In this document: positions 4,217 through 62,673 of the stretch, one piece after another
Layout: every line of letters starts with the position of its first letter
Position numbering within the stretch: the stretch's first letter is position 1
DNA from: a bacterium
Lineage (GTDB): Bacteria > Patescibacteriota > Minisyncoccia > Phycocordibacterales > UBA2100
DNA: 64,000 nt
NCBI GenBank assembly: GCA_030674455.1
Contig: JAUSGQ010000006.1
Span: forward strand, 15,654 to 79,653
Reading direction: 5' to 3'
Program-made: the position numbers and the translations under genes
The notes under the pieces: model-generated
Told to the model about the DNA's origin: nothing
Database searches by the model: none
The model's input: the letters and a program-made list of their open reading frames with translations, nothing else

Positions 4217-5800
<1,584 letters not shown>

Positions 5801-7489: not shown

Positions 7490-7535
7490 TTCTGTGACAG
7501 TGAAATATTTTGTTCAAGAATGTTAAAGTAACTAC

Positions 7536-9757: not shown

Positions 9758-9788
9758 AAATCGTGCTCAATCGTGATAGCATGCTGAA

Positions 9789-15533: not shown

Positions 15534-17375
15534 ATGGAGATTCGTAACATAGCTATTATTGCCCACGTCGACCATGGGAAGACTACGCTCACCGATGCGC
15601 TTTTGCGGCAGACGGGTGTTGCCGAGGAAGGGGTTTCGATGGACTCAAACGCTTTGGAACTTGAACGAGGCATTACAATTTATTCCAAGAACGCGGCGAT
15701 TCCTTATCGCGACACAAAGATAAATATTGTTGACACTCCCGGCCACGCCGATTTCGGAAGCGAAGTGGAGCGAGTCTTGCGCTCCATTGATTCGGTGCTT
15801 CTCGTCGTTGACGCGCAGGAAGGCCCGATGCCGCAGACGCGTTTTGTTCTCAAGAAATCTCTGGAGCTTGGAATAAAACCAATCGTTGTAATAAATAAAA
15901 TTGACAAGCCGGCGGCCGACCCCGCGCGCACGGAAGAGCAAGTACTGGAACTTTTTATGGAGCTCGGAGCTTCCGACGAGCAGACTAATTTTCCAGTCGT
16001 CTACACCATCGGCAAACAGGGAATCGCAAAAAATAAACTTACTGACGAATCAAAAGATTTGACTCCGCTTTTGGAAACAATTCTCGCTCACGTTCCTGCT
16101 TCGGACCCCGCCAAAAAAACTGCGCCATTGCGTCTTCAGCCGTTCAACCTCGGCTACGACAACTTCCTCGGGCGTCTCGCAGTCGCGCGCGTGTATGAAG
16201 GCACGTTAAAGAACAGCGACAATGTTTTCGTTAAGAAACCAAATGGAGAAACACGAAGCGGAAAAATTACGAAGATTTTCACGTTTCGCGGGTTGCGAAG
16301 AGTCGAAGTCGGCACTGCCGAAGCGGGCTTGCCCGCCGAAGCCTTGGCGGAGGCGGGCGACATTGTTCTAATCGCTGGCCTGCCGGATATTTACATCGGC
16401 GAAACGGTGACGACAGACGCAAACACAGAACCCCTGCCGGCGATTGAAGTCGACCCGCCGACTATCGCACTGAATTTTCTCGTCAACAATTCGCCATTCG
16501 CCGGGCGCGAGGGCAAATTCGTCACATCTCGCCAAATCCGCGAGCGCTTGGAGCGCGAGCTTGAAATTAACGTCGGATTGCGCATTGATTTTGCTCCGGA
16601 AAGAAGCGCGAATGATAGCGGACCAGAAGGATTTAAGGTTTCCGGCCGAGGCGAACTCCACATCGCGATTCTTTTGGAGCAGATGCGCCGAGAGGGTTAC
16701 GAACTTCAGGTCTCACAGCCGCAAGTCATTTTTCACGAGGAAAATGGCCAAAAACTTGAGCCTTTTGAGGAAACCATAGTGGATATTCCGAGCGTATATC
16801 AGGGCGTAATAATTGAGCGTTTGGGACAGCGCAAGTTCGTCATGAAGGATATGAAAATACACGAGAATCAGATGCGCATCACGTTTGAAGGCCCGACGCG
16901 CGGGCTTTTGGGCTACCGCAGTTCATTTATATTGGACACGAAGGGCGACGGCATTCTTGCGTCGCGAGTCATCGGCTTCAAGCCGTACGCGGGAGAAATA
17001 AAGAAACGCGCGGTCGGCTCCATGATTTCAATGACGACAGGGAAGGCGCTCGGATATTCTCTCTGGAATTTGCAGGACAGAGGCGTTCTTTACATAGTGC
17101 CCGCCACGGAAGTGTACGAGGGCATGGTGATAGGCAACACTTCGAAGGGTGAGGAGATGTCTGTGAACCCAACGAAGAACAAAAATCTCACGAACGTCCG
17201 CTCATCTTCTTCCGACGAGGCGCTCACGCTCGTGCCTCCGTTTGAATTAACTATCGAGCGCGGGCTTGAGGTCATGGCGGAAGACGAATATCTGGAAATC
17301 TCTCCCACGAGCGTCCGTTTAAGAAAACAGTTTCTGACAGAGATAGACCGCTCACGAGCGCAAAGGAGGGAATAA
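15534..17375 (+). CDS. typA: translational GTPase TypA/BipA
   Basis: AHVDHGKTTL, DTPGHADF, NKIDK plus EF-G-like domains. Carries an in-frame Element A copy at 16328-16357 (AGLPAEALAEAG). Confidence 0.95.
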   Translation: MEIRNIAIIAHVDHGKTTLTDALLRQTGVAEEGVSMDSNALELERGITIYSKNAAIPYRDTKINIVDTPGHADFGSEVERVLRSIDSVLLVVDAQEGPMPQTRFVLKKSLELGIKPIVVINKIDKPAADPARTEEQVLELFMELGASDEQTNFPVVYTIGKQGIAKNKLTDESKDLTPLLETILAHVPASDPAKKTAPLRLQPFNLGYDNFLGRLAVARVYEGTLKNSDNVFVKKPNGETRSGKITKIFTFRGLRRVEVGTAEAGLPAEALAEAGDIVLIAGLPDIYIGETVTTDANTEPLPAIEVDPPTIALNFLVNNSPFAGREGKFVTSRQIRERLERELEINVGLRIDFAPERSANDSGPEGFKVSGRGELHIAILLEQMRREGYELQVSQPQVIFHEENGQKLEPFEETIVDIPSVYQGVIIERLGQRKFVMKDMKIHENQMRITFEGPTRGLLGYRSSFILDTKGDGILASRVIGFKPYAGEIKKRAVGSMISMTTGKALGYSLWNLQDRGVLYIVPATEVYEGMVIGNTSKGEEMSVNPTKNKNLTNVRSSSSDEALTLVPPFELTIERGLEVMAEDEYLEISPTSVRLRKQFLTEIDRSRAQRRE

Positions 17376-26175: not shown

Positions 26176-26934
26176 ATGGAAATCGAGAATACGCCCATTT
26201 TGAGTCATAAAAAGCCTGCCTGCGTTGCGAACGCGACAGGCAGGCCGCCCACGGCCGTCTTTTTGGCTACCGCCTTTGTCATATTCGTTCTTACTCTTTC
26301 GGCGGCGGATTCTATTGGATTCGTTCCAAATTATATTGATGGTTCGACCGAGGAAAGCGCGGCAGAACCTGCGGACTTCCTGCCACTCGCATCTCTCCCA
26401 CAGCTCGGCGGTCTGCCGTCCATTGAATCGATTACCGCGGAAATTGCCGAACCGGTCGCACTTCCTAATCGTATCGTAATTCCTGCAATAAAAATGGACC
26501 TTCCAATCCAAAACCCATCGACAAAAGACATCAATAAGCTTACCGAAGTTCTTAAAGCTGGCCCCGCTCGATATGTGGACTCCGCGCAACTGGGTGAGAA
26601 AGGGAACATGCTTGTATTCGGACACAGCTCACAGTTGCCGGTTGTTAAAAATCAGATGTACAAGGCGTTCAATAATATTTCAAAACTAAAACAGGGCGAC
26701 ACTATTACGGTATATGGCGGGCCGTCTACAGGTGCCGCCACAACCAGCGGTGGACATGCGTATCTCTATAGCGTGGTCAGCGTGCGGGAAGGGGATGCGA
26801 ATGAAGATGTAATCGACCTCTCGAAAAATAAGGGTACGAGGATAACGCTTGTGACCTGCAACACGCTTGGCGAAAAAAGCGCGCGATGGATAGTGGAAGC
26901 CGAATTCGTTGGCGTTCTTCCTTCGTCAGATTAG
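26176..26934 (+). CDS. sortase-family transpeptidase (membrane-anchored)
   Basis: N-terminal TM anchor. Sortase beta-barrel with catalytic ITLVTCNTL (TLxTC) motif and an upstream conserved His region (LVFGHSSQ). Confidence 0.8.
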   Translation: MEIENTPILSHKKPACVANATGRPPTAVFLATAFVIFVLTLSAADSIGFVPNYIDGSTEESAAEPADFLPLASLPQLGGLPSIESITAEIAEPVALPNRIVIPAIKMDLPIQNPSTKDINKLTEVLKAGPARYVDSAQLGEKGNMLVFGHSSQLPVVKNQMYKAFNNISKLKQGDTITVYGGPSTGAATTSGGHAYLYSVVSVREGDANEDVIDLSKNKGTRITLVTCNTLGEKSARWIVEAEFVGVLPSSD

Positions 26935-26982: not shown

Positions 26983-27012
26983 CATTCCAACATTCTCAAG
27001 AATGTTGGAATG
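26983..27012. repeat. third copy of the 30-nt perfect palindrome CATTCCAACATTCTCAAGAATGTTGGAATG
   Basis: Lies between the convergent sortase and toxin genes. Confidence 0.5.
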
Positions 27013-27023
27013 TTATCCATACG

Positions 27024-30055: not shown

Positions 30056-31543
30056 ATGAAAACTATAAACACGTTTGTCGCGATAGCTTTATTTGCGTTT
30101 GGTGCGCCTTTTTTTGCGTTTGCCGATGATAACGTCGGTGACGGCAATGTAATTCCGCCTCCGGGTTATACGGATTATATTCCTACTCCCGGCTATACAG
30201 ACTACATTCCGACCCCGGGATACACGGATTATGTTCCATCGTACGGCTCTCAAGCCTACGATGTCTACGACGTTTACGGAACTTCTCCGACTTACGACTA
30301 CTACTCCACGTCTCCGAATTACTACGCTACCACTCCTAATTATTACTCTAGTCCAAGTTACTACAGTTCCACACCGACTTATTACCCGACGACTCCGGTA
30401 TATTCGTCTCCGGGTGTAGCTGCAGCTCCTATTTACTCTTACTCGCCTACGAATACGACAATAACAGAGACCACTTCAACTTGGGCTCCTTCGGAAGTTT
30501 ACACTTACGCGCCGACCTCAACGTGGGCGCCGACAGAAATATATTCTCCGAGCGAAATTTACACTTACTCGCCTACGACAGTTTCCAATTACTCTCCAAC
30601 AAGTATCTACGCTCCGAACGACAGCCACGATTACGCCCCGACTACGGTTACCACAGACAGCCACAACTACACCGGTCCGGTTACCATCTCGGTAGTCTCG
30701 CAAGCCCCAGCGCAAAGCCCTGTGCAATACGTTTCGGGAGGCGGAACGTACTTCAACAACTCTCCTTCGTACAACAATTCTCCCTCGTACTACAACACGC
30801 CGAGCTACTTCCCGCCGGCGCCTGCGCCTTCTTGCAGAATCGTTGCCAGCGGTGGATACGGCTCCGGCTACGGTAACAATGCAGTTGTACTCTCTTGGAC
30901 TTCTTCGAATGCCAACAGCGGATACATCTCTCCGCTCGTAGGCACTGTCGCTCCTTCCGGCTCGACGACTGTTTACCCGAACGCCAATACTCTCTACACG
31001 CTCACGGTTTCGGGCAATGGCGGAACTTCTTCCTGCCAAACGTATGCCGGTTACAGCAACTATGTTGCTCCTGCCGCTCCGGTCTACACAGCTCCGGTTG
31101 CGCAAGCGGCCGCAGTAGCTCCGTATGTCGCCCTCACGCAGATTCCTTACACGGGATTTGACTTCGGCACCTTCGGCAACGCCATGTACTGGCTCGTGCT
31201 TGCGGGATTCGCTGTCGCCGCTTCCTACCTTGTACTCTACTTCCGCGGTGGCGCATTCGCGCTCGTCGGCTCGATGTTGCGAGGAAAGAATTCTCGAGGA
31301 GACACCTCCCCCTTGGGGGTGAGGAGTCACCTCGGAAATGCCGGAAAGACCGCTGAATTCGCGACGTCACGAGTTTCCGAGGAGACACCTTCCCTGCCCG
31401 CCGAAGCTTCAGCGCAGGCAGGCAAAAGCGAAGGAGTCACCTCGAACCTCGGAACTTCTGCCCGTGGCACGAATGATTCAATGATTTCCGTCGGTTCAGT
31501 AGAGGGCGGAATGGGTCCGCGCATCGTAGTACTCCGCGCTTAA
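30056..31543 (+). CDS. secreted Ser/Thr/Tyr/Pro-rich repeat surface protein with C-terminal IPYTG-TM-basic tail (candidate sortase substrate)
   Basis: Signal peptide. PTPGYTDYIPTPGYTDYIPTPGYTDYVP repeats. A Cys-bracketed LSWTSSNANSG domain like those in the 2619-4082 protein. IPYTG at 31142-31156 followed by a hydrophobic helix and RGG...R. The cytoplasmic tail is extended by Element A/B insertions. Confidence 0.7.
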   Translation: MKTINTFVAIALFAFGAPFFAFADDNVGDGNVIPPPGYTDYIPTPGYTDYIPTPGYTDYVPSYGSQAYDVYDVYGTSPTYDYYSTSPNYYATTPNYYSSPSYYSSTPTYYPTTPVYSSPGVAAAPIYSYSPTNTTITETTSTWAPSEVYTYAPTSTWAPTEIYSPSEIYTYSPTTVSNYSPTSIYAPNDSHDYAPTTVTTDSHNYTGPVTISVVSQAPAQSPVQYVSGGGTYFNNSPSYNNSPSYYNTPSYFPPAPAPSCRIVASGGYGSGYGNNAVVLSWTSSNANSGYISPLVGTVAPSGSTTVYPNANTLYTLTVSGNGGTSSCQTYAGYSNYVAPAAPVYTAPVAQAAAVAPYVALTQIPYTGFDFGTFGNAMYWLVLAGFAVAASYLVLYFRGGAFALVGSMLRGKNSRGDTSPLGVRSHLGNAGKTAEFATSRVSEETPSLPAEASAQAGKSEGVTSNLGTSARGTNDSMISVGSVEGGMGPRIVVLRA

Positions 31544-31574: not shown

Positions 31575-31660
31575 ATAGACACCTGTAGACGGCCTATCGT
31601 TTGTGATAGGCACCTGTAGACGGCCTATCGTTCATGATAGACACCTGTAGACGGTCCGTG
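31575..31660. repeat. three tandem 31-bp copies of Element C (CACCTGTAGACGG core)
   Basis: ATAGACACCTGTAGACGGCCTATCG(TTTGTG) repeated three times. Confidence 0.65.
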
Positions 31661-31783
31661 AGCTCCCCCTCCTTCGCCTCCTCCTTCGCATAAAGCTACG
31701 GAAGGACAAAGAAGGCTTCGGAGGGCAAAGAAAGCGAAAGCAACAAAAACCGCCTCAATGGCGGTTTTTGTTTTGTGGCTATA

Positions 31784-37471: not shown

Positions 37472-37593
37472 AAAAGATAGTATTTAGTATGCGGTATTTT
37501 GTATTCGGTAGGACCTACACAAGGAGATCAAAAGACAGTGTAAAACCGAGCTTTTCGTCTACAGATGCCGATGCATACTTCATCGGCCAGTCT

Positions 37594-41855: not shown

Positions 41856-42082
41856 TCCCGTTAGAAGTTACGGAAGGTCTGATAAGCAAATATCCGCGGA
41901 ATGTTTTGCATTGGTCGATTATTTACCAGGAACGAACAACGAGACGGAAGCGCAAGCTTCCTACCTGCCCGCCAAAGCCAGAGCGGGGCAAATGGCATGA
42001 AGACAAACGCAAAGTATTTATTAGTTAATCAAGTTCGCCACGACCGTCGCTTCAGGCGATGGCAGGCGGGCTTCTAACGGGA
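41856..42082 (+). mobile_element. 227-bp non-coding TIR element (MITE-like) inserted in the SMC-like gene start codon; TIR TCCCGTTAGAAG, TSD TGTA
   Basis: Left end TCCCGTTAGAAG (41856-41867). Right end CTTCTAACGGGA (42071-42082). TGTA occurs at 41852-41855 and 42083-42086. The final A of the element plus the TSD TG rebuilds ATG at 42082. Confidence 0.7.
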
Positions 42083-44358
42083 TGTACCTAAAGTCCATTG
42101 AGCTTACGGGGTTCAAATCGTTCGGCAAAAAGACCGACATAGTTTTTGCTTCCCGCATTTCTTCTATCGTGGGTCCGAATGGTTCCGGAAAATCAAATGT
42201 CGCGGAAGCATTCAGATTCGTGCTCGGAGAACAATCAATGAAATCACTGCGCTCCAAGCGCGGGGAGGATTTGATATGGGGAGGGTCGCCGACACTGCCG
42301 AGGAGCAATAGAGCCGGCGTGAAAGTCGTTTTTGATAATTCCCTGCCTGCCGCGCAGGGCACGGCGCAGGCAGGCACGCGGCTTTTGGATTTGGATTTTA
42401 ACGAGGTCGCCGTTGAACGAATCGTGTATCGCGACGGCGAGAACGAGTATCTATTGAATGGAACCAAGGTGCGCCTCAAGGACGTCATCCGTTTGCTCGC
42501 GGGCGCCAACATCGGCGGCTCCGGATACCAGATAATTTCACAGGGAGAAGCCGACAGGATCCTGAATGCGAGTCCTCGCGAGCGCAGAGAGATGGTGGAA
42601 GATGCTCTCGGTCTCAAGCTCTACCAGCACAAAAAAGCCGAGAGCGAGCGAAAGCTCGAGGAGACGGCATCAAATATTGATAAAACAAAATCGCTCCGGC
42701 GCGAGATAACCCCGCATCTGAATTTCTTGCGCTCTCAAGTCCAGAAAATCGAGAAAGCGCGGGAGATGAAGGAGATGCTCGCGGCAAAACTTTCCGAATA
42801 TCTTGCGCGTGAACACGCGTGGATAACTTCGGAAGACAAGCGGCTTAGTGCGGAAGAGCGTTCGCAGGAAACAGAATTAAAGACTCTTGGAAATCGAGCC
42901 AATGAGGCGCGGGGAAAGCGCCCGAGCCAAAGCGCCGGCGTTCTGCAGGAACTGAAGGGAAAGATAATTGAGCGCGAGCAAAAACTTAGTGAGGCCCGGC
43001 GCGAGAGCGAGAAACTCACACGCGAACTCGGGCGGGCCGAAGGCGTTGCAGAAGCCAATACGGTGATGGTGGAGCAAATCGTCGCCGTGCCGCATGTGAG
43101 GCAGTTTGCCCGCGAGGTTAGCGAGGCGATTTCGGAAGCTTTGCGCAACGACGACATGCCTTCCGTGCGCGTGCTTCTTTTGCACATTAAGGACCGCATT
43201 CAATCATTCGTCGACGGTCTTTCCGGTTCGGCGCCGGATACGAAAGAAGAATCGCAGCAACAGGTGAAAGCAATCGCGAATTCTTTGGAGCGCGTCCAAA
43301 AAGAGGAAACGGCGCTCGCGCAGGAGCTGGAGGCATTGCGAGCGCAAATTACACAGGTGCGCGATGCCGGTTTTGCGGCGGAGCGCGATTTAATCGAACT
43401 TGAATCTGCTGTGCGCGAAGCGCAGGGAAAGCTCGGTTCTGTGCAAAACGCGCGCATGACCATAGCGACTTTGCGCCAGGCATTTGAGGACGAAGTGCGC
43501 GAAGGCATCGCTCTCGTCGGTGCCGCTATCCATGATTGGGAAAAGCCCCTCCGCCAGCCGGCGGATGGCGGAGCGGGGGATGAGGTGCTTACTGGCGACG
43601 ACCGCCCCGCGCAGGAAAAAAGGCGGCGGGAGATCGAGCGGTTGAAAATAAAGATAGAGGAATCTGGAATTGGAAACGGCGATGCGGTCGTGCGCGAGTT
43701 CAATCAGACCAGAGAACGCGACGAATTTCTCGGACGCGAGCTTGTAGACCTTGAGCGCTCCGCGGCGTCGCTCAAAGATATTATTGTGGAACTGGAGAAG
43801 ACTATTGATGCCAAATTTACGGAAGGCCTCAAATTGATAAACGCCACGCTCGGCGATTTCTTTATGAAATTGTTCGGCGGAGGCGCAGCCAAGCTGGAAG
43901 TGGAGGAACCCCGCCTTCGCCGAGGCTCCGGCGGGCAAAGCCCGAAAAGCGATGAGGACTTAATGGATGAGGAGGAAGAAATGACCGAGGAAGAGGAATT
44001 GTACGCGGGACTTTCTATCTCGGTCCATCTTCCGCGCAAAAAAGTTCACGGGCTTGAAGTACTTTCCGGAGGCGAGCGCGCGCTCACTTCTATCGCGCTT
44101 ATATTCTCGATGTCGCAGGTTAATCCTCCGCCGTTCTTGGTTTTGGACGAAACAGATGCCGCTCTTGATGAGGCCAACAGCAAGCGATACGCAGATATGA
44201 TTCGCGAGCTTGGCTCCAAAAGCCAGCTTATCGTTATCACGCACAACCGCTCGACAATGGCCGCGGCAGGAGAACTTTATGGAGTTACGATGGGGAACGA
44301 CGGGGTCTCGAAAATGTTGTCCGTTAAATTGGAAGAGGCCGAAAAGGTTGCAAAATAA
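42082..44358 (+). CDS. SMC-family chromosome-segregation ATPase (short, 758 aa; hinge not recognised)
   Basis: N-terminal Walker A GPNGSGKSN, long coiled-coil, C-terminal LSGGERALTSIALIF and Walker B LVLDETDAALDEAN. Confidence 0.75.
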   Translation: MYLKSIELTGFKSFGKKTDIVFASRISSIVGPNGSGKSNVAEAFRFVLGEQSMKSLRSKRGEDLIWGGSPTLPRSNRAGVKVVFDNSLPAAQGTAQAGTRLLDLDFNEVAVERIVYRDGENEYLLNGTKVRLKDVIRLLAGANIGGSGYQIISQGEADRILNASPRERREMVEDALGLKLYQHKKAESERKLEETASNIDKTKSLRREITPHLNFLRSQVQKIEKAREMKEMLAAKLSEYLAREHAWITSEDKRLSAEERSQETELKTLGNRANEARGKRPSQSAGVLQELKGKIIEREQKLSEARRESEKLTRELGRAEGVAEANTVMVEQIVAVPHVRQFAREVSEAISEALRNDDMPSVRVLLLHIKDRIQSFVDGLSGSAPDTKEESQQQVKAIANSLERVQKEETALAQELEALRAQITQVRDAGFAAERDLIELESAVREAQGKLGSVQNARMTIATLRQAFEDEVREGIALVGAAIHDWEKPLRQPADGGAGDEVLTGDDRPAQEKRRREIERLKIKIEESGIGNGDAVVREFNQTRERDEFLGRELVDLERSAASLKDIIVELEKTIDAKFTEGLKLINATLGDFFMKLFGGGAAKLEVEEPRLRRGSGGQSPKSDEDLMDEEEEMTEEEELYAGLSISVHLPRKKVHGLEVLSGGERALTSIALIFSMSQVNPPPFLVLDETDAALDEANSKRYADMIRELGSKSQLIVITHNRSTMAAAGELYGVTMGNDGVSKMLSVKLEEAEKVAK

Positions 44359-44621: not shown

Positions 44622-45080
44622 ATGTTAATGATACGAATGCAGAGAATAGGCCGCAAAAACATGCCGGCTTTTCGTATTATTGTCGCCGAACACACCCGTG
44701 GCCCGAAGACCGGCAACATCGTTGAAAAGGTGGGCACCTACAATCCGAAGACGAAAGAGAAGCAGTTCAACGCGGACAGGATTAAATACTGGCTTTCTGT
44801 CGGAGCAAAGGCCAGTGCCACAGTTCACAACATGCTCGTTTCCGAGAAAATCATCACTGGAGCAAAAATTGCAAAACACCAAGAGAAACCGGCAGAACCG
44901 GTGGCGGCTAAAACCGCCGACCTGCCCGCCGAAGCCTCGGCGCAGGCGGGAGGCGGTTCGCCCGACTCTTCGCAAAGCGAAGAGGTTAGGGAAGTAAAGG
45001 CCGAGGCAAAGGCACCAGAGGCAGAAACCGCTCCAGCAGCTGAAGAAAAAGTTGAGGCAAAAGAAGAAAAGGTTGCCTAA
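44622..45080 (+). CDS. rpsP: 30S ribosomal protein S16 with Ala/Glu/Lys-rich C-terminal extension
   Basis: MIRMQRIGRKNMPAFRIIVAEHTRGPKTGNIVEKVGTYNP is bS16. The tail carries an in-frame Element A copy (LPAEASAQAGG, 44922-44950). Confidence 0.85.
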   Translation: MLMIRMQRIGRKNMPAFRIIVAEHTRGPKTGNIVEKVGTYNPKTKEKQFNADRIKYWLSVGAKASATVHNMLVSEKIITGAKIAKHQEKPAEPVAAKTADLPAEASAQAGGGSPDSSQSEEVREVKAEAKAPEAETAPAAEEKVEAKEEKVA

Positions 45081-45317: not shown

Positions 45318-46703
45318 ATGTTTAGTCATAGCCCAAGCGGCAAATCTGGAGTTCATCATGGCAGACCGTCTACAGGTGCCGGCGCCCGCCATGCCGGCCC
45401 CTCATCGAGAGGGGCTTATTCCCCGCGCCGTTCGTTTGGGCATTCCTCGCATCGCGCTCCGGCGAGCCGTCGACAGGTCTCGCCATACCCGGCGAGCAGA
45501 GGTTTTCACAAAAGTTACGCACCGACCCGCCTTCGCCGAGGCTTCGGCGGGCAAGGGCGGGGGTTCGGTAGTCGCGGAGGTGCCCGTGGAGGTGAACGCA
45601 TCGACATCTCGCGATTCATCAACAAGGCCGTCATCACGGAAACTACCGAGCATTTCAAGCCCGAGCATCATTTCATGGATTTTGCCATCGACGAGCATTT
45701 GAAGAAAAATATTTTGGCAAAGGGGTATTTCGAGCCGACGCCAATCCAAGACAGAGCCATCCCGCATGTGCTAAACGGCGAAGATGTTTTCGGAGTCGCC
45801 AACACGGGGACAGGAAAAACGGGCGCATTTCTCATTCCGCTTATTGATAAAGTAATTCGAGACAGAAAGAATCGCGTACTCATAATGGTGCCGACGCGCG
45901 AACTTGCACGGCAGATAGAGGACGAGTTCTGGAGCTTTGCGAATCATATGCGAATCGGCGCCGTCTCATGCGTCGGAGGAGCAAATATCGGTCCGCAAAT
46001 CGCGACTCTGCGCAGACACCCGAACTTCGTTATCGGAACTCCCGGCCGCTTGAAAGACATAATGGAGCGCCGCGCGATTAATCTTTCCGAGTTCAGCACG
46101 GTTGTTTTGGACGAAGCCGACAGAATGTTGGACATGGGCTTCATCGCCGACATGCGGTTCATTCTTTCTCTGGTTCCGAAAGAGCGGCACACTCTTTTCT
46201 TCTCGGCGACTCTTTCGCGCGACATAGAAAAACTCATCGGAGAATTCTTGAAAGACCCCGTGCGCATTTCGGTCAAAACGCGCGACACCGCTTCAAGCGT
46301 TGACCAGGATATTGTGCGCGTACCGGTGGGTAAGACAAAAATTGAAGTATTGCGGGACATGTTGATAAAGCCTGATTTCGGCAAAGTGCTTATTTTCGGA
46401 CGCACGAAGCACGGAGTGGAGAAACTCGCGAAAGAATTGGTGCATCTTGGATTCAAGGCGGCATCTATTCACGGCAACAAAACGCAAAGCAATCGCCAGA
46501 GAGCATTGGACGCATTCAAGCACGACAGGACGCAAATTCTTGTGGCGACAGACGTTGCGGCGCGCGGATTGGACATTCCAAAAGTCTCTCACGTCATCAA
46601 CTTTGACGTCCCCAATACATACGACGACTACGTGCACCGCATCGGCCGTACCGGCCGCGCTGGGGAAAAAGGCCAGGCGCTTACGTTTGTGGAGGGGAGA
46701 TAG
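45318..46703 (+). CDS. DEAD-box ATP-dependent RNA helicase (N-terminal Arg/Gly/Ser-rich extension; alternative start at 45675)
   Basis: Q motif, Walker A ANTGTGKTGAF, DEAD box, SAT, HRIGRTGRAG. The first ~119 codons are low-complexity and include Element C (45366-45382) and Element A (45526-45555) copies. Confidence 0.9.
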   Translation: MFSHSPSGKSGVHHGRPSTGAGARHAGPSSRGAYSPRRSFGHSSHRAPASRRQVSPYPASRGFHKSYAPTRLRRGFGGQGRGFGSRGGARGGERIDISRFINKAVITETTEHFKPEHHFMDFAIDEHLKKNILAKGYFEPTPIQDRAIPHVLNGEDVFGVANTGTGKTGAFLIPLIDKVIRDRKNRVLIMVPTRELARQIEDEFWSFANHMRIGAVSCVGGANIGPQIATLRRHPNFVIGTPGRLKDIMERRAINLSEFSTVVLDEADRMLDMGFIADMRFILSLVPKERHTLFFSATLSRDIEKLIGEFLKDPVRISVKTRDTASSVDQDIVRVPVGKTKIEVLRDMLIKPDFGKVLIFGRTKHGVEKLAKELVHLGFKAASIHGNKTQSNRQRALDAFKHDRTQILVATDVAARGLDIPKVSHVINFDVPNTYDDYVHRIGRTGRAGEKGQALTFVEGR

Positions 46704-48371: not shown

Positions 48372-48380
48372 TTTTAGGAA

Positions 48381-48430
48381 TTTCCGAGGAGACACCTCCC
48401 CACACATGGGTGAGGAGTCACCTCGGAAAT
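48381..48430. repeat. Element B copy (TTTCCGAGGAGACACCTCC...GGGTGAGGAGTCACCTCGGAAATGCC), intergenic
   Basis: 24 nt are identical to 31325-31348. Imperfect ~20-bp hairpin with TTTCCGAGG/CCTCGGAAA ends. Confidence 0.65.
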
Positions 48431-52123: not shown

Positions 52124-52350
52124 TCCCGTTAGAAGTCGCGAAAGTCTGGAATATGGTACATTCAATATATGTTTCTAATTTGTCGTTTGCTTACGAACAC
52201 TAACTTTTGAGTCGGAAGCGCAAGCTTTCTACCTGCCCGCCAAAGCCAGAGCCGAGCGAGTAATATGAAAACAAACATGAGACATTATCAGCTAATCAAG
52301 TTCATTGCTACCGTCGCTTTCAGGCGATGGCAGGCGGGCTTCTAACGGGA
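52124..52350 (+). mobile_element. 227-bp non-coding TIR element (MITE-like) inserted in the inositol-monophosphatase start codon; TSD TGGA
   Basis: Ends TCCCGTTAGAAG (52124-52135) and CTTCTAACGGGA (52339-52350). TGGA at 52120-52123 and 52351-52354. ATG rebuilt at 52350. Same length as the copy at 41856-42082, with conserved blocks. Confidence 0.7.
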
Positions 52351-55475: not shown

Positions 55476-55496
55476 AAACGCAGTACCCGCCGAAGG
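55476..55496 (+). terminator. hairpin AGTACCCGCC-GAAG-GCGGGTACT
   Basis: Perfect 10-bp stem 35 nt after the stop codon. Confidence 0.5.
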
Positions 55497-55867
55497 CGGG
55501 TACTTACGCGACTTTCAGGAGAGCCACAAGCTTTTATGGCACTCACACAAGCACTATACCGTAGACGTGGCGTCAGGCAATACTTCTTTGTGGATTACTT
55601 ACATATGACGCTTGCTTTCCCGGCCGGGAGGGCAAGCGTCATATGGCATGTGGACAGTGCATCTAATTTTATTGCGGCTAGCGAGGAGCGAAGTGGGAGC
55701 TTGCTCACACTTCGTCCGAGCGAAGACGCAACACAGGTTGAATAGCTCGCAGCTTGCTGCGAGAATGCGCGAGTGAAGCGAGCTCCGACAATGCCTCGGG
55801 GCTTGCCCCGAGGAACCTTTATTGCATTGTCAAACGGGTCTCAAATGCTATCCTTATAACAGATTCC

Positions 55868-55975
55868 GACACAGCCCGACTTCGTCCCTACTTCGTTAAG
55901 ACTATGTAAGGGCGCAGCAAGACTACGTCGGACACAGCCCGACTTCGTCAAGACTACGTCGGACACAGCGCGGAG
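55868..55975. repeat. degenerate ~31-bp tandem/direct repeats (GACACAGCCCGACTTCGTC and AAGACTACGTCGGACACAGC, two copies each)
   Basis: Lies inside a 1.2-kb non-coding region. Confidence 0.5.
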
Positions 55976-56651: not shown

Positions 56652-59228
56652 ATGGGGATGTCATTTTGGAAGGGGCTTTTAGGGGACGATAATTCCGCCG
56701 CTCTTAAGCGCGCACAGCCTATTGTCACTCAAGTTAACGCGCTTGAGAACGAAATGCGCGCTTTATCAGACGCGGAATTGATCGATACAACAAATAAACT
56801 TCGTCAGGAGCTTGAATCGGGAAAGACCCTTGATGAAATTGCTTCGCGGGCGTTTGCGCTCGTGCGCGAATCCTCGAGGCGTACGCTCGGAGAGCGCCAT
56901 TTTGATGTTCAGCTCATCGGCGGCATGATCCTGCATAATGGAGACATAGCGGAAATGAGAACTGGCGAAGGAAAGACGCTCGTCGCAACCTTACCCGCGT
57001 ATCTAAACGCTCTTTCGGGTAAAGGTGTGCATATTGTTACGGTCAACGACTATCTATCTCGCCGCGATGCGGTGTGGATGGGGCAGATATACCACGCCCT
57101 CGGTTTGTCTGTAGGAGTCATCAATAATGACAGTTCATTTTTATACGACCCAAGCAGTGTGTCTGAAAGTACGTCGGGCGAAAGCTCCAAGCTCCAAGCT
57201 CCAAGCTCCAATCAAAATCCAAATACCAATGATCAAAATCAAAAACTGGACGAAATTCGGGACGCAACAGGGAGTTTCCACGTAGTCCATGAATTCCTGC
57301 GCCCGTGTTCCCGTACGGAGGCGTATGCGGCCGATATTACGTACGGAACGAATAATGAGTTCGGCTTCGATTACTTGCGCGACAACATTGAATACACTCC
57401 TGCCACGCTCCGGCAACGCGGATATAACTATGCGATAGTAGACGAAATAGACTCCATATTGATAGACGAGGCGCGCACTCCGCTCATCATATCCGCGCCC
57501 GTTGCGGATGCCGAGCGCCTGTATGACCGATTCGCGGTAATTGCAAGGAAGCTTATTCCAAAGGAGGATTATACGATTGACGAAAAACATAAACAAATAG
57601 AGCTTTCCGACTCTGGAATTGAAAAGGCGCAACTCGAACTCGGAGTCGGAAACATATATACCGAAAAGGGAATTAAATACGTACACCATTTAGAGACAGC
57701 GGTGCGCGCGGAGGCGCTTTTTCATAAAGACAAAGAGTACGTTGTTCGCAATAATGAGGTCGTAATAGTCGACGAATTTACGGGCAGATTACAGCCGGGG
57801 AGGCGGTGGAGCGAAGGGCTGCACCAGGCTATTGAAGCCAAGGAGGGAGTTAGCGTTCAACAAGAATCGCGCACCTTTGCCTCGATTACATTCCAGAATT
57901 ATTTCCGCCTGTATGAAAAACTTGGCGGAATGACAGGCACGGCCATGACGTCTTCCGAGGAATTTTATAAAGTGTATGGCCTTAATACCGTTGCCGTGCC
58001 TACAAATAAGCCGTCTGCAAGAATAGACCATGAGGACCTTATCTTTCAGACTGAAGCCGGCAAATATAAAGCGGTTGCAAGAAAAGTGCGTGAACTAAAC
58101 AAAAAAGGTCAGCCGGTTCTTGTGGGGACTGCGTCAGTGGAGAAAAACGAATTGCTAAGTGCGCATTTCAAGCAAGAGGGTATTCCGCACGAAATGTTGA
58201 ACGCGAAGAACCATGAAAGGGAAGGGGAAATAATCGCGCAAGCGGGTCGCTATGGTGCAGTAACCATTGCGACCAACATGGCAGGCCGCGGCGTAGACAT
58301 CAAGCTGGGTGGAAATCCCACGACAGACGAGGAGTACGACAAAGTAAAAGCACTCGGCGGCCTCTATGTGCTTGCGACTGAGCGCCATGAAGCGAGGCGA
58401 ATAGACAATCAATTGCGAGGCCGTTCGGCGCGGCAGGGCGACCCCGGAGAAACTGAATTTTTTGTTTCTCTCGAAGACTCTCTGATGCGTATTTTCGCCT
58501 CGGATATTATCAAGCGGGTTATGGGCACGTTCAAAATTCCGGAGGATGAGCCGATTTACAATTCGATGATAACGAAATCTCTTGAGAAGGCGCAGACTCG
58601 CATCGAGGAGATGAATTTTGATATGCGTAAACACGTTCTCGCGTACGACGATGTTCTCAACATCCAGAGACAGAGTATTTATTCTCGCAGGCGTGCTTTA
58701 TTGGTGGGCGGCAAAGATGCAATCGATTCCGAACTCGCAAGAATCGGCGAAGCTAACGAAAGTTTCAAAGCTGTCGTCTCAGAGAAGAAAACTGAACTCG
58801 GCGCGTCTTTCCACGAATTGGTGCAAAAGTTTTTATTGCAAACAATTGATTTTCTCTGGGTCGATCACCTGGAAGCAATGGAATATTTGCGTTCAAGCGT
58901 AAATCTGCGCGCGTATGGACAGAGAGATCCGCTTGTCGAGTACAAAAGGGAAGGGCTAAAAATGTTCCAACAAATGGAATCTTCGTACGCGATGCAAATT
59001 GAGAATGTACTTCCAAACCTCAAAGGCGAGGTAAATGTAAGCGCAGAAGCCAAAGTTATCCACAACGCAGTTCGCTCGATAACTCTCGGTTCCTCGCTAC
59101 CTAATCAGGAGAAATTCGAGCGCAACGACAAAGTCGTAATTACCGACGGCAAGGAAAACAGAGAGATGAAATTCAAGAAAGCTGAAGCACTTCTTGCAAC
59201 AGGCAAGTGGAAGATAGTTGGGAATTGA
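56652..59228 (+). CDS. secA: preprotein translocase ATPase SecA
   Basis: DEAD-like motor domains (MRTGEGKTL; DEVDSILIDEARTPLII), preprotein cross-linking domain and helical scaffold. 858 aa. Confidence 0.95.
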   Translation: MGMSFWKGLLGDDNSAALKRAQPIVTQVNALENEMRALSDAELIDTTNKLRQELESGKTLDEIASRAFALVRESSRRTLGERHFDVQLIGGMILHNGDIAEMRTGEGKTLVATLPAYLNALSGKGVHIVTVNDYLSRRDAVWMGQIYHALGLSVGVINNDSSFLYDPSSVSESTSGESSKLQAPSSNQNPNTNDQNQKLDEIRDATGSFHVVHEFLRPCSRTEAYAADITYGTNNEFGFDYLRDNIEYTPATLRQRGYNYAIVDEIDSILIDEARTPLIISAPVADAERLYDRFAVIARKLIPKEDYTIDEKHKQIELSDSGIEKAQLELGVGNIYTEKGIKYVHHLETAVRAEALFHKDKEYVVRNNEVVIVDEFTGRLQPGRRWSEGLHQAIEAKEGVSVQQESRTFASITFQNYFRLYEKLGGMTGTAMTSSEEFYKVYGLNTVAVPTNKPSARIDHEDLIFQTEAGKYKAVARKVRELNKKGQPVLVGTASVEKNELLSAHFKQEGIPHEMLNAKNHEREGEIIAQAGRYGAVTIATNMAGRGVDIKLGGNPTTDEEYDKVKALGGLYVLATERHEARRIDNQLRGRSARQGDPGETEFFVSLEDSLMRIFASDIIKRVMGTFKIPEDEPIYNSMITKSLEKAQTRIEEMNFDMRKHVLAYDDVLNIQRQSIYSRRRALLVGGKDAIDSELARIGEANESFKAVVSEKKTELGASFHELVQKFLLQTIDFLWVDHLEAMEYLRSSVNLRAYGQRDPLVEYKREGLKMFQQMESSYAMQIENVLPNLKGEVNVSAEAKVIHNAVRSITLGSSLPNQEKFERNDKVVITDGKENREMKFKKAEALLATGKWKIVGN

Positions 59229-59497
59229 GCTTGTCTCGGACCTCCGAGATGTTCCGATATATCGAGCCATCTCGGACGTGTCTCGGATTACCATGTGGTT
59301 CATATGCATTGGTGAATGGAAGCTCAAATTTGCAAAATACAATTTGCAATTTGCAAATTAAATCTAAAATCGCAATTCTCAAGCTATACCATCATGAAAA
59401 CACGGCCGATGCAAATGCCTTTTGTAATTTCTGTATTGTGATTTTGTTTGCAAATTATGGTTTGGAGCTTGCAAATTCAACGTGTTACAGTGCCCGC

Positions 59498-61528
59498 ATG
59501 GCAACATACGTTCCCACGATAGGACTTGAGATTCATGCCGAGCTCAAAACCAGGACCAAAATGTTCTGTAGTTCAAAGAACGATGCCGACGAAGTGCGCC
59601 CAAATTTTAATGTCTGCCCCGTCTGCCTCGCGCATCCGGGCACGCTTCCTGTTATCAACCAGGAAGCCGTGAGGCACGTACTGCGGGTAGGGAACGCGCT
59701 TAAGGGAACTATCGCCGATTATACGGAATTCGATAGAAAGAATTATTTTTATCCCGACCTTCCGAAGGGCTATCAAATTAGCCAATACGAATACCCCTTA
59801 GTTTCTGGGGGCTCGCTTAACGAGGTGCAGATTACAAGAATCCATCTCGAGGAAGACACCGCCTCGCTGATGCACGCCGAAGAACATCAGCGGATATCCG
59901 CGGATATGAATCTGCGACAATCTGCGTCCTTGGTGGATTACAATCGCGCAGGAGTACCACTGATGGAGTTGGTGACAGAACCAGTTATCAAAAGTGCGGA
60001 AGAAGCCGGAACGTTTGCCCGAGAATTACAGCTGCTTCTTCGATACTTGAACGCTAGCGAGGCGAATATGGAAAAGGGAGAAATGCGCGTAGAAGCCAAC
60101 GTCTCTGTCGCTAAAGCGCCAGAGACCGCGGATTCACGCGGATACGAAGAGCGGATTCACGCGGATACAGAAGACACGAAGTTGTTATATAAGGAATTGA
60201 CTTATAAAATCAGGGGAGCCGCATTTGCAGTCTATAACGTCCTTGGTAGCGGCCACAAAGAATCCGTATATCAAAATGCTTTTGCGGAACATTTAAAAAA
60301 GGTAGGTATTTCATACGCAAAAGAGCAGAGCATTGGCGTGTCTTATGAAGGGAAACGGGTAGGGAGTTATCAGCCGGACTTCGTGATAGACAATAAAATC
60401 ATAATAGAATTAAAGGCACTTCCGTTTGTCGGGGATATAGAGAGAAGGCAAGTTCGTTACTATCTCAAAAACTCATCCTATCGACTCGCGTTACTCATCA
60501 ATTTCGGTTCGAGCCCCATCGGTATTGAAAGGATCGTATACGATCATATCCGCCATCAAACGCAGATAAGCGCTGATTCCCATCCGCGGATATCCGCTGA
60601 TAATCCGCGTATATCTGCGGAGTTAGGCACAAAGGTAGAGATAAAGAACCTGAACTCGTTTCGCATTATGGAAAAAGCAGTCGCGTATGAAATTAAACGC
60701 CAACAAGAATTGCTTGAACGTGGCGAGAAAGTTGCGCAGGAGACCAGGGGGTGGGATGAGAAGACAGGCAAAACGTTCTCACAACGGGTGAAAGAGGGTA
60801 GCGCTGACTACCGATATTTCCCCGATCCTGACTTACCATCATTGAAATTATCTGAAGTTGAAGAATTCCTAACCGACGCACTCCTAAAAGATATGCCGGA
60901 GCTACCCGCAGAACGCAGGGCGCGTTATAAAGGCCTTGGCATAAAGGCTGAAGACGCCGACTTGTATGTACGCGAGACTCGTCTCGGAGGGTACTTTGAA
61001 GCTGTTGTTGAGGGTTACAAGCCGCAATCTCGCGAGCTTATTCTGGCATCTAACTACATCGCGAATGACCTTGTTAAGATTATCCGACTTCGCTCCGCCG
61101 AAGCTCGTAAGAGCGAAGGAGAGGATAAGGGAGCTCCGTCGAGACAAGTCCGAGATATGGAAGAACGAGATTCAGAAGTCCAACCCGAGTTTCTTATATC
61201 AGCTCGATATTTCCAAGAGATAATTAGGATGCTCTGTGCCAACGAAATATCTTCTAGAGCGGCTAAAGACTTGCTCGCCTTGTCTATCTCGGAGAAGCGG
61301 AGCCCGTCCGAGATTGCTAAAGAAAAGGGTTTATTCCAAACGATTTCGACATCGGATATCGAGGCAGTCATTGCGGAGGTAATCTTGAAGAATCCCAGGG
61401 TTGTGTCTGATTTTAAGGCCGGTAAGACAGCTTCATTGGAGTATCTGATTGGGCAGTGTATCAAAGCATTGCGCGGCGCAGGCGACCCTATAATGCTTAG
61501 GGCGCTCATTTTGAAGCAACTAGAATAA
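59498..61528 (+). CDS. gatB: Asp/Glu-tRNA amidotransferase subunit B with a ~170-aa in-frame insertion carrying a GxxExxY PD-(D/E)XK nuclease domain
   Basis: GatB core (MATYVPTIGLEIHAELKT, CPVCLAHPGTLPV, HLEEDT, ELGTKVEIKNLNSF, DYRYFPDPDLP, C-terminal YqeY-like domain). The insert at about 60110-60619 contains GSGHKESVY and PDFVID...IIELK. Start placed at the internal Met, since the first 97 track codons lack GatB homology. Confidence 0.85.
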   Translation: MATYVPTIGLEIHAELKTRTKMFCSSKNDADEVRPNFNVCPVCLAHPGTLPVINQEAVRHVLRVGNALKGTIADYTEFDRKNYFYPDLPKGYQISQYEYPLVSGGSLNEVQITRIHLEEDTASLMHAEEHQRISADMNLRQSASLVDYNRAGVPLMELVTEPVIKSAEEAGTFARELQLLLRYLNASEANMEKGEMRVEANVSVAKAPETADSRGYEERIHADTEDTKLLYKELTYKIRGAAFAVYNVLGSGHKESVYQNAFAEHLKKVGISYAKEQSIGVSYEGKRVGSYQPDFVIDNKIIIELKALPFVGDIERRQVRYYLKNSSYRLALLINFGSSPIGIERIVYDHIRHQTQISADSHPRISADNPRISAELGTKVEIKNLNSFRIMEKAVAYEIKRQQELLERGEKVAQETRGWDEKTGKTFSQRVKEGSADYRYFPDPDLPSLKLSEVEEFLTDALLKDMPELPAERRARYKGLGIKAEDADLYVRETRLGGYFEAVVEGYKPQSRELILASNYIANDLVKIIRLRSAEARKSEGEDKGAPSRQVRDMEERDSEVQPEFLISARYFQEIIRMLCANEISSRAAKDLLALSISEKRSPSEIAKEKGLFQTISTSDIEAVIAEVILKNPRVVSDFKAGKTASLEYLIGQCIKALRGAGDPIMLRALILKQLE

Positions 61529-61647: not shown

Positions 61648-62673
61648 ATGTCAGACGAACTAACAATCGACTCGCAGACTTTTATCTCGTCTAAACGAGC
61701 ATCGGAGTTAAGCGGATATGAGCAGGATTACATAGGCCAGCTTTGTCGTGGAGGTAGCATAACTGCGCGCAGAGTGGGTGGGCTTTGGTATGTGTCGGAA
61801 GAATCTCTTATGAGCTATAAAAAGGGTGCCGCGCAGTATAAGCCGGAGCCACCGCTAAATACCGGCGAGATAGCTCGACCGGATTCATTGGTTTCTTTTG
61901 ACGGCAGGGGTTATATCTCAACATCCCGCGCGGCGAAAATTACCGGATACACACCAGATTATGTGGGACAAATGGCCAGAGCCGGCATTATCCCGTCACG
62001 GCAGGTAGGAAATCGATGGTATGTCGAGCAATCGGGCATATTGAGGCACAAGGAGAGTAAGGACGCCCTATTAGCGGCCGTACAGGTTCAATCTGTTGGT
62101 ATTACGAATCAGAAAGCCACGGAAGTTGAGAGTGATATGGCCGTGGCACCATTACTGAAGTATGTCAGCGATAATCGCGAACTCCTCCCATCTATGGGCG
62201 AATCAGCAGACCGTCTACAGGTGCCGACCATAGACCGGTCGGCCCGTCTACAGGCGAATCAGCAGACTTCGTGGCTCGGCCTGCCGATGCCTACCCCATC
62301 GGCCTTCGTGGCTAGGCCTGCCGATATCAGATCTCCTGAAGCGGAGATGGCAAACGAGGAGGTTGCAGAGCAGGAACATGTCATCCCGATACGGATACAT
62401 CATAATAGCCGAAATATTGCTAAGAATAAGGCCTTTTTTAAGCCAGTGGCTGTAATACCAAGAAAGTCCTTATTGCCGATGTTGTTGCCGGTTGGAATGT
62501 TCACGATAGTGATTGTCCTTTCGCTTGGATTCGTTTCTCTGAAAAGGTCATCCACCTATACAAGCCGCGGAACAGCCCAATTGGCGAGCGTAGGCATGAA
62601 CTTCGTAGGAAAAGTCGGAGATTCCCTTGAGAACTGGTTCATACCTGAAATCGTTTACCAAAGGACCAATTAA
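61648..62673 (+). CDS. membrane protein with two N-terminal excisionase/MerR-type HTH repeats (...GxWYV)
   Basis: ISSKRASELSGYEQDYIGQLCRGGSITARRVGGLWYV and ISTSRAAKITGYTPDYVGQMARAGIIPSRQVGNRWYV. C-terminal TM helix. In-frame Element C copy at 62221-62265. Confidence 0.5.
   Translation: MSDELTIDSQTFISSKRASELSGYEQDYIGQLCRGGSITARRVGGLWYVSEESLMSYKKGAAQYKPEPPLNTGEIARPDSLVSFDGRGYISTSRAAKITGYTPDYVGQMARAGIIPSRQVGNRWYVEQSGILRHKESKDALLAAVQVQSVGITNQKATEVESDMAVAPLLKYVSDNRELLPSMGESADRLQVPTIDRSARLQANQQTSWLGLPMPTPSAFVARPADIRSPEAEMANEEVAEQEHVIPIRIHHNSRNIAKNKAFFKPVAVIPRKSLLPMLLPVGMFTIVIVLSLGFVSLKRSSTYTSRGTAQLASVGMNFVGKVGDSLENWFIPEIVYQRTN

Follow-up and report, generated by a model that had tools for sequence, protein, structure and literature searches.

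Repetitive extragenic palindromes (REPs) typically lie outside genes, often in pairs and flanking their RAYT gene, and a given REP family is usually restricted to one species or genus. The G+C clusters of fungal mitochondria, palindromes of tens of nucleotides, are mobile, show nesting, and may sit in genes, and the very small dispersed repeats of cyanobacteria (Elhai et al. 2008), also tens of nucleotides long, reportedly nest and are sometimes intragenic. Neither of the latter two has been reported to span bacterial phyla, and both differ in sequence, host, and structure from the repeat treated here. This repeat, Element A, is a G+C-rich hairpin of 30 nucleotides (nt) that is scattered over a 64,000-nt stretch of DNA (positions 15,654 to 79,653 of contig JAUSGQ010000006.1, assembly GCA_030674455.1), hereafter called the window, from a Kaiserbacteria-like genome of the Patescibacteria whose next TypA relatives are named Kaiserbacteria. 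It is proposed, with a probability of about 0.7, that Element A is a non-autonomous, REP-like mobile hairpin of exactly 30 nt that tolerates translation.

REPs are hairpins of 20–40 bp with a terminal tetranucleotide, some of them intragenic, and RAYT has been proposed as their mobilizer (PMC3733652). Those tagged with GTAG or CGTC occur in several phyla and have intragenic members, notably in Opitutus terrae and, as the short Rickettsia palindromic elements (RPEs) RPE-4 and RPE-6, in Rickettsia conorii, and CGTC-1 repeats encode peptides of the VMPAEAGI, WMPAFAGMT, and IPASAGMT types (Di Nocera et al. 2013, PMC3733652). Element A is likewise a short, G+C-rich, imperfect hairpin, one end of which carries an unpaired tetranucleotide; its dispersed copies include stem and loop variants within one genome, are found in several phyla, lack coding capacity, and are in some cases intragenic, adding short peptides. 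It differs from REPs, however, in that the tetranucleotide (the foot) is C-Y-T-G rather than GTAG or CGTC, in its conserved 3 × 3 purine internal loop and inner stem, in copies that stand singly rather than as inverted pairs (BIME/REPIN), and in the intragenic position of all strong copies in the window. In addition, no RAYT gene is seen near it (26 window open reading frames, ORFs; 149 loci), and it is nearly identical across distant phyla, at exactly 30 nt and stop-free. GTAG is present within Element A only as an internal-loop variant. The stem and loop of CGTC-1 (...CCCGC-GAAG-GCGGG...) presumably resemble the outer stem of Element A plus GAAG.

Repeats of the RPE-1 type are palindromic selfish sequences that lie in frame in unrelated conserved genes, are translated, and are tolerated by the protein fold (Ogata et al. 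2000; PMC10969869). An earlier note on the window, made from its letters alone, had compared Element A with them, and the comparison holds for the in-frame behavior, as the element sits in frame in unrelated protein genes and is absent in orthologues (typA, rpsP, DEAD, ABC-F, and the smc head). It does not extend to size and architecture: RPE-1 type repeats measure ~100–150 bp and are known from Rickettsia only, whereas Element A has 30 nt, an unrelated sequence, and hosts in many phyla, and its tetranucleotide foot with a short hairpin is nearer to a REP. Element A works like RPEs, yet it is not a member of the RPE family.

For a possible mechanism, the working analogy is with the ends of IS200/IS605 elements, whose Y1 HUH transposase TnpA recognizes a strand-specific subterminal hairpin and a short foot and excises seamlessly by "peel and paste" (PMC6006769, PMC8266576); class 3 of TnpA-Y1 has other 5′ tetranucleotide feet, such as CnGA (PMC6006769). 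A strand-specific hairpin, clean empty sites, and the lack of target duplication are common to both, but upstream of Element A only a weak GG preference is seen in place of a fixed target tetra- or pentanucleotide, the six window copies, a small sample, are split evenly in orientation, and no TnpA is found among the same ORFs and loci. Derivation from an insertion sequence (IS) with terminal inverted repeats and target-site duplication does not fit, as the S16 and smc-head inserts carry no duplication and no related IS is seen. A solitary CRISPR repeat, an integron attC site, and a hairpin associated with diversity-generating retroelements were set aside on their known architectures, given no spacer arrays, no GTTRRRY boxes, and a unit that is too short. 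A full-text literature search for sequence stretches and encoded peptides found no published account of Element A, and a keyword search on palindromic repeats in candidate phyla and on REPs in Patescibacteria gave nothing specific.

Unit and structure of Element A

An alignment of 148 non-identical copies, all sources pooled, yields a unit that reads CYTG + CCCGCC + GAA + GCY + TY + RGC + GNA + GGCGGG. Information content falls to zero right past GGCGGG, and on the 5′ side C-Y-T-G alone is conserved, with a weak preference for GG ahead of it (positions −6 and −5; 0.24 and 0.37 bits); thus, the unit has 30 nt. The CYTG foot is present in 30 of 38 copies from Patescibacteria, in 32 of 84 from other phyla, and in 18 of 30 from viruses.

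The hairpin has an outer G+C stem of 6 bp and an inner stem of 3 bp, separated by a 3 × 3 purine internal loop in which GAA faces GNA and capped by a loop of 2 nt; it was entered in the covariance model as ....((((((...(((..)))...)))))) over 30 positions. The loop-closing pair, both positions of which were left unconstrained in the search pattern used to collect the copies, covaries strongly (C-G 100, T-A 43, T-G 5, C-A 2; Fisher p = 2e-29). Across 132 distinct sequences, 98.5% of cells are paired and double changes are found in 70 cells, compared with 16.6 in shuffles, and the signal collapses when the partner column is shifted by 1–3. Copies retrieved by the inner core alone, with the flanks unconstrained, have compensatory outer stems such as TCCGCC/GGCGGA, GCTGCC/GGCAGC, ACCACC/GGTGGT, and CCAGCC/GGCTGG. 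The conserved pairing given by covariation is therefore CCCGCC/GGCGGG plus GCY/RGC. The arms that the earlier note had drawn, CGCCGA/TCGGCG, describe a fold open only to copies with a CTCG loop and have to be abandoned, because position 19 is A in 45 of the 148 copies and would face an invariant C. The facing triplets GAA and GNA, invariant except at N, are complementary in no copy, which makes the structure strand-specific.

The loop variants CTTG, CTCG, and TTCG are free of stop codons in all six frames; TTTA brings stops into two of them and TTCA into one. Inserts have a G+C content of 67–83%, even within a genome of 36% GC. No Rfam 15 family matches the window at gathering thresholds, and permissive thresholds around the S16 copy (44850-45020) return chance-level matches only.

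Copies of Element A in the window

The window carries six strong copies, every one in an ORF, three in each orientation (Table 1). With at most three mismatches to the consensus of the earlier note, five matches are found, where 0.00 are expected from 100 shuffles, and allowing up to seven mismatches adds the ABC-F copy. In a scan with a covariance model built solely from copies of other genomes, all six are recovered with E values from 7e-9 to 8e-5, and no further site of the window reaches E < 0.05. The five copies listed earlier are thus all real and correctly placed; the list had missed the minus-strand copy in the SMC linker. Pfam confirms the hosts as ABC_tran (twice; ABC-F), TypA/BipA, SMC_N, Ribosomal_S16, and DEAD/Helicase_C, and leaves the sixth, a "surface protein" rich in Tyr, Ser, Thr, and Pro, without a match. 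The peptides quoted for these hosts were accurate: the three forward copies all translate to LPAEA[SL]A[QE]AG, and the reverse copies to PSFAKASAGR once and to RLRRG[SF]GGQ twice.

Beyond the canonical form, the ABC-F insertion comprises an element of 31 nt, the left stem of which has 7 nt, and 2 further nt, and the variant in the smc head has a CCTG tail and a CCTGCC/GGCAGG stem around a different interior; judged by tail and stem, the latter probably belongs to the same family. The earlier note had counted it among degenerate relatives, correctly inasmuch as it is a genuine 33-nt insertion absent in two relatives, together with 24635-24655 and 25152-25170, which are not significant (E 4.2 and 0.74) and were rejected as members; these two have only the CCTG tail and CCTGCC/GGCAGG stem in common with Element A and lie inside another repeat. 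The intergenic relative is of uncertain membership. The stretch CCTGCCCGCCAAAGCCAGAGCGGG upstream of smc, which lies within a 68-nt repeat that recurs at 52209-52276, may be a decayed copy.

Table 1. Strong copies of Element A and candidate relatives in the 64,000-nt window
Feature	Position	Strand	Context	Sequence	Peptide	Score
Element A, canonical, 30 nt	44921..44950	+	S16 (rpsP) C-terminal tail	CCTGCCCGCCGAAGCCTCGGCGCAGGCGGG	(D)LPAEASAQAG	49.7 bits
Element A, canonical, 30 nt	16328..16357	+	typA/bipA domain II		LPAEALAEAG	51.0 bits
Element A, canonical, 30 nt	45526..45555	−	Arg/Gly-rich N-terminal extension of DEAD-box helicase		(T)RLRRGFGGQ	51.3 bits
Element A, canonical, 30 nt	43910..43939	−	SMC variable linker ahead of C-terminal head		(P)RLRRGSGGQ	48.2 bits
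Element A with one stem mismatch (GGCAGG)	31393..31422	+	C-terminal tail of "surface protein"		LPAEASAQAG	36.9 bits
Older 33-nt insertion	4514..4546	−	ABC-F		PSFAKASAGRG	32.6 bits (model match 4514-4544)
33-nt variant	42342..42374	+	SMC N-terminal head		LPAAQGTAQAG	15.8 bits, E 0.39
Diverged relative (family D3), membership uncertain	55938..55967	−	Intergenic, ~1.5 tandem copies	TGTGTCCGACGTAGTCTTGACGAAGTCGGG		19.5 bits, E 0.06
Element-A-like stretch (family D8)	41964..41987	+	Upstream of smc	CCTGCCCGCCAAAGCCAGAGCGGG		13.6 bits, E 1.1

Filled and empty sites in orthologues

Comparison with orthologues, among them those of relatives with 74–81% nucleotide identity to the window, bears out the claim that the copies are insertions in loops or disordered tails of unrelated conserved proteins. 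In S16, two relatives (L153 and L155) have the empty site, ...ACCGCCGA followed directly by AGGCGGT..., and read ...AAA ACC GCC GAA GGC GGT... there. The window adds exactly 30 nt (CCTGCCCGCCGAAGCCTCGGCGCAGGCGGG) after GCCGA and before AGGCGGT, and nothing of the target is duplicated. Unfilled, the site is itself a CCGCC-GAA-GGCGG mini-hairpin. In typA, an insert of 30 nt adds ten residues that are absent in the 14 closest orthologues (84–93% identity); GCGGGC stands at either end of it, and the unfilled site is GTGGAGGCGGGC followed by GAC. AlphaFold predicts the inserted residues as a low-confidence loop joining two beta strands of domain II, in a model whose first two domains are predicted well and whose C-terminal half poorly.

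The helicase copy is absent in L153 and L154. Read on the opposite strand, the extra segment is letter for letter CTTGCCCGCCGAAGCCTCGGCGAAGGCGGG, a complete 30-nt unit, and the adjoining Arg/Gly-rich stretch also differs in length among relatives; the helicase of L155 has its own, independent forward copy a few codons off (L155:3983-4012). A metagenome scan for close relatives of this helicase, in which the best match was 72% identical, added no further filled/empty pairs. In the smc head, the 33-nt variant is a clean insertion between TCC and ACG, absent in L154 and L155 and free of duplication. The linker of smc differs among relatives and is too variable for a clean empty-site comparison, and the "surface protein" has no usable orthologue. 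These alignments show insertion without target duplication, and presence or absence differs between related lineages.

The ABC-F insertion appears older. Its 33 nt are absent in the four closest orthologues (P0242-P0245; 81–82% identity) and, at the DNA level, in L236. A Wildermuthbacteria metagenome-assembled genome (MAG; L237) and a Patescibacteria MAG of 36% GC that is named Candidatus Pacebacteria (L238) both have the insertion at this site, in a 33-nt layout like that of the window. The peptide stands at the same position in other Patescibacteria lineages in 24 of 120 ABC-F orthologues, as does that of typA in 5 of 120. Such recurrence, which the earlier note had named as a sign of ancestral protein sequence, is thus seen in part, but the carriers are patchy, polyphyletic, and not each other's nearest relatives, and their DNA is recognizably Element A; this speaks for reinsertion at hot spots, for precise loss, or for exchange of alleles, and against ancestral protein sequence. 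Among three ABC-F carriers from different Patescibacteria classes, third codon positions are identical at 5 of 8 sites inside the element and at 69 of 291 in the rest of the gene, a pattern that points to an old insertion kept uniform in its DNA, or to repeated precise loss or allele exchange.

The frame is kept, as the earlier note had stated, and insert length is a multiple of three: 30 nt in S16 and typA, a fitting 30-nt unit in DEAD, and 33 nt in ABC-F and the smc head. Because the 30-nt boundaries are sharp even in non-coding contexts, this is a property of Element A and not merely a filter imposed by selection, and since the common variants are also stop-free, insertion into an ORF adds a harmless decapeptide. 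Insertions persist where the protein tolerates them, namely in a loop of TypA domain II, in the S16 and DEAD helicase tails, and in the SMC linker.

Distribution across bacteria and phages

An exact scan for the 26-nt core, with one genome per species, located it at at least 120 genome loci, while fewer than about 2 chance matches are expected by our own estimate, even in DNA of 70% G+C. Among the matches listed, 37 loci belong to Patescibacteria of many classes, and further hosts are Acidobacteriota, Bacteroidota, Verrucomicrobiota, Planctomycetota, Myxococcota, Alpha- and Gammaproteobacteria, Desulfuromonadales/Geobacter, Methylomirabilota, and Dehalococcoidales. Most carriers are MAGs; the isolate genomes are those of Niastella soli and Reyranella soli. 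The core also occurs in 29 IMG/VR viral contigs. Four related phage contigs of ~66% G+C (L139, L144, L132, and L147) hold five or six variants in ~13 kb, with differing compensating stems, a density far above that of most bacterial loci. No match was found in PLSDB (72,556 plasmids), INPHARED (50,697 phages), or 5,426 E. coli genomes.

Element A is therefore not special to this kind of genome, since the same core is present in many phyla and phages. In unselected sequence, for which the metagenome scan with the DEAD helicase was reused as an unbiased 0.8-Mb background, there are 2 matches in 870 kb, both in Kaiserbacteria relatives, and a syntenic relative (GCA_030647595.1) has 0 copies in 43 kb, compared with 6 in the 64-kb window. 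These densities indicate that this lineage has had its own proliferation of the element, and all that sets the source genome apart is how densely the copies lie and how many essential genes they strike.

Contexts of copies elsewhere

Element A is inserted at many unrelated places in the Kaiserbacteria-like genome, and the contexts of its copies elsewhere show that it is not confined to coding DNA. ORFs of 150 aa or more contain 71% of the copies in Patescibacteria loci, compared with 79% of random positions, and the copies occupy all six frames and both orientations (15 same and 23 opposite, n = 38). Coding sequence is thus used near-randomly, with survival in tolerant regions of the protein.

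Outside protein genes, two kinds of RNA genes are affected. Copies overlap tRNA genes by 4-6 nt at six loci (L022:6314-6408, L076:848-944, L084:1151-1244, L101:7557-7650, L109:1307-1401, and L073:3515-3609), where the 3′ end of Element A supplies the first five bases of the tRNA (GCGGG, the start of the acceptor stem) and a second GCGGGC lies upstream; in L012, L023, and L093, the copy starts right after the 3′ end of a tRNA. Overall, the GCGGGC hexamer is found upstream of 10 of 148 copies. The flanking GCGGG at typA and at tRNAs is also the 3′ end of Element A itself. In the RNase P RNA of a Desulfuromonadales MAG (L099:1619-2013) and a Lewinella MAG (L111:3064-3505), both on the minus strand, Element A occupies a variable helix ahead of the conserved UAAGGGUGAAA. 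In the latter, a 40-nt insertion contains the whole unit, whereas in the former the interior GAAGCUUUAGCGAA alone substitutes the helix tip, on a native stem (CCGCCCGCC/GGCGGG) that resembles the stem of Element A.

Element A is also nested in other G+C-rich repeats and arranged in head-to-tail tandems with a spacing of 0-16 nt. At six loci (L019, L034, L037, L017, L071, and L072), it is central in another G+C-rich repeat (CCTCTCCCCGC...GGGGAGAGG ... GGGTGAGGGG), whose hosts are Alphaproteobacteria, Myxococcaceae, Verrucomicrobiia, and Kiritimatiellae; this repeat, too, seems to be common to several phyla. No neighboring gene is recurrent: a clustering of the 2,706 ORFs that lie up to 3 kb from a copy, across 149 loci, gave no family in more than 6 loci, these 6 being related phages.

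Mobilization and alternative explanations

Element A has no coding capacity, and no mobilizing gene stands beside its copies; none of the 26 window ORFs scanned with Pfam has a transposase domain, Y1 HUH/RAYT included. Together with the missing recurrent neighbor, this fits mobilization in trans. A mobile hairpin of this kind would be moved as a folded single strand by an enzyme that recognizes the foot and the asymmetric internal loop, and the best precedent for such an enzyme would be the Y1/HUH transposases known as RAYT or those of IS200/IS605, whose excision and insertion leave no target duplication. By analogy with these systems, an HUH-type step is conceivable, though we would not give it even odds within the proposal. 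Targets would tend toward likeness with the stem of Element A (GCGGG ends and CCGCC/GGCGG hairpins), and phages may ferry the element between hosts.

Several observations weigh against a REP-like mobile hairpin. Folding energies are unremarkable for base composition (z = −0.5 to −2.3), for which reason thermodynamic stability was rejected as evidence for the hairpin and covariation, on which the structural case rests, was used in its place. Within a single genome, the loop and the N position vary from copy to copy, which rules out a simple burst from a single master. IS200/IS605-type elements are usually biased by replication strand, and the orientation of the window copies is even, albeit in a small sample (n = 6), although cumulative GC skew climbs over most of the window. 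Since no mobilizing enzyme was found in the 26 window ORFs or the 149 loci, the HUH/Y1 step is by analogy only, and the typical REP traits of an extragenic position, frequent pairing, and a flanking RAYT gene are not seen. Near-identity across phyla is not accounted for by vertical descent and would call for horizontal spread. Finally, same-site inserts recur in non-sister orthologues (typA and ABC-F), and in the RNase P RNA of L099 the interior of Element A alone replaces the tip of a helix that already has a CCCGCC/GGCGGG stem; for these two observations, homology-guided conversion fits at least as well as transposition.

The explanation that survives best among the alternatives, while still unlikely in our judgment, builds on the last point. 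Gene conversion or replication template switching among short G+C-rich hairpins with a CCCGCC/GGCGGG stem could have copied Element A without a dedicated transposase, turning part-resembling sites into full copies that concerted evolution keeps uniform. Resemblance before insertion is indeed recurrent, as in the CCGCC-GAA-GGCGG empty site of S16, the empty site of typA, which ends in GGAGGCGGGC, identical to the last 10 nt of the typA copy plus the next base, the GCGGG common to tRNA 5′ ends and Element A, the upstream GCGGGC of 10/148 copies, and the L099 helix, where only GAAGCUUUAGCGAA was set on the tip of a native CCGCCCGCC/GGCGGG stem. Copying of this kind would also agree with the same-site inserts in 5/120 typA and 24/120 ABC-F orthologues, with third codon positions that are conserved more in the element (5/8) than in the rest of ABC-F (69/291), and with the lack of a transposase in the 26 ORFs and 149 loci. 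However, the empty sites of the smc head and ABC-F are unlike Element A, and at S16 a complete unit, CCTG foot included, sits within the old hairpin instead of converting it. Sharp 30-nt ends and a conserved foot in 148 unrelated contexts better suit a unit that is cut and joined, and homology-guided copying leaves the arrival in new phyla unaccounted for.

Selection could instead maintain Element A at each site as a functional nucleic-acid signal, be it a hairpin for RNA stability or processing, a site bound by a protein, or a signal for priming or termination, with a conserved binding partner explaining the likeness across phyla. Strong covariation and an invariant internal loop support such a signal; copies are frequent beside tRNA genes and past gene ends, the gene ending at 55440 has a plain CCCGCC-GAAG-GCGGG hairpin after it, synonymous sites within the ABC-F copy are conserved, and REPs are thought to be RNA elements in many species (PMC3733652). 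Yet copies lie in both orientations to transcription (3:3 in the window and 15 same to 23 opposite among the 38 of Patescibacteria), and given a strand-asymmetric structure, an RNA role is impossible for all of them. Moreover, close relatives differ in the presence of Element A inside essential genes, copies are nested in other repeats and in tandem arrays, and no Rfam family matches, all of which makes a signal under selection at every site a decidedly improbable account.

Much less probable still is an ancestral or selected Ala-rich linker peptide of which the DNA likeness is a by-product: several Patescibacteria lineages do have the same peptide at the same ABC-F position, and a related one in typA, but the reading is contradicted by DNA that is read in all six frames into unrelated peptides and that also stands in non-coding contexts, RNA genes, and phages, and it sits poorly with absence in the nearest orthologues, polyphyletic carriers, and inserts of 67–83% G+C even in a 36% GC genome. 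An assembly or sequencing artefact (an adaptor or chimeric hairpin), suggested by the preponderance of MAGs, has next to no likelihood, as independent assemblies from different projects and two isolate genomes carry Element A, copies have diverged while base pairing was retained, the frame is kept, inserts recur at orthologous sites across separate assemblies, and the plasmid, phage, and E. coli collections named above have none.

Other repeats and features in the window

Several further repeats are present in the window. A second palindromic family, CCGTCTACAGGTGCCGAT-loop-ATCGGC, is found at 5333-5365, 9703-9735, 26717-26759, 37550-37592, 45361-45403, 62206-62248, and 63488-63530, with a tandem at 31575-31667. 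One copy lies within an ABC-F insertion of ~30-40 residues (around residue 361, ...KPTSKNRVGNKPSTGVYHHPIDHISDGGVRPE) that only four other orthologues have, and another in the N-terminus of the DEAD helicase; this family also appears to insert in frame. The perfect palindrome ATTCCAACATTCTCAAGAATGTTGGAAT (family D4) has four copies, apparently intergenic (7140-7175, 7461-7496, 9725-9760, and 26984-27019), and could be an operator or a terminator-like repeat. Of two short repeat families, TTCCCGAGGTGACTCC... (24613-24638, 24959-24984, 24999-25024, and 25130-25155) surrounds the CCTGCCTRCC...GGCAGG hairpins that had been counted as degenerate copies, and GAATTTCCGAGGAGACACCTCCCC (31288-31311, 31371-31394, and 48378-48401) has a copy, at 31371-31394, directly upstream of the Element A copy in the "surface protein" gene.

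Downstream of the gene ending at 55440, the plain CCCGCC-GAAG-GCGGG hairpin occupies 55482-55500, and ~370 bp further lies the intergenic tandem of the diverged relative (55868-55967; CTGTGTCCGACGTAGTCTTGACGAAGTCGGG). The regions upstream of smc (41941-42052) and of an inositol-phosphatase-like gene (52209-52319) have ~110 nt in common at 80–85% identity (families D8 and D11), a stretch that includes CCTGCCCGCCAAAGCCAGAGCGGG and that may be a leader or regulatory region of both genes or else a composite repeat in decay. GatB (59207-61528) contains a complete PD-(D/E)XK_3 nuclease domain at residues 329-437, between its catalytic and C-terminal domains, which is unusual as an insertion in an essential amidotransferase subunit. 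In SecA (56652-59228), the DEAD-like domain spans residues 9-438 for a profile of 290 positions, which implies an insertion of ~140 residues.

Significance

Taken as a whole, Element A behaves like a very small, undescribed, and widely travelling mobile element. A broader picture, which we offer as speculation and regard as rather doubtful, would place it among the smallest mobile elements of cellular genomes: stop-free, frame-neutral, and invisible to translation, it would cross phyla, probably on phages, multiply where a widespread single-strand DNA enzyme or a host repair pathway recognizes the foot and the purine loop, and revisit or precisely leave sites in essential genes, seeding new loops and tails. 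The questions that arise are what moves an element of 30 nt, how distant phyla and phages come to share it, and how the same protein sites are repeatedly gained and vacated. The sharply defined unit of foot, stem, and internal loop lends itself to sequence searches and laboratory tests and could help to find the enzyme that moves REP- and RPE-like repeats.

In practical terms, Element A can produce spurious "hypothetical proteins", displace alignments, and mimic shared indels in markers such as typA, rpsP, and RNase P RNA. For the Patescibacteria, it offers a concrete source of their many lineage-specific protein insertions and a natural experiment on where proteins can accept a decapeptide. 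Should it prove mobile and genuinely common to several phyla, either sequence would travel in units much smaller than a gene, or a hairpin of 30 nt would be able to parasitize some universal machinery.

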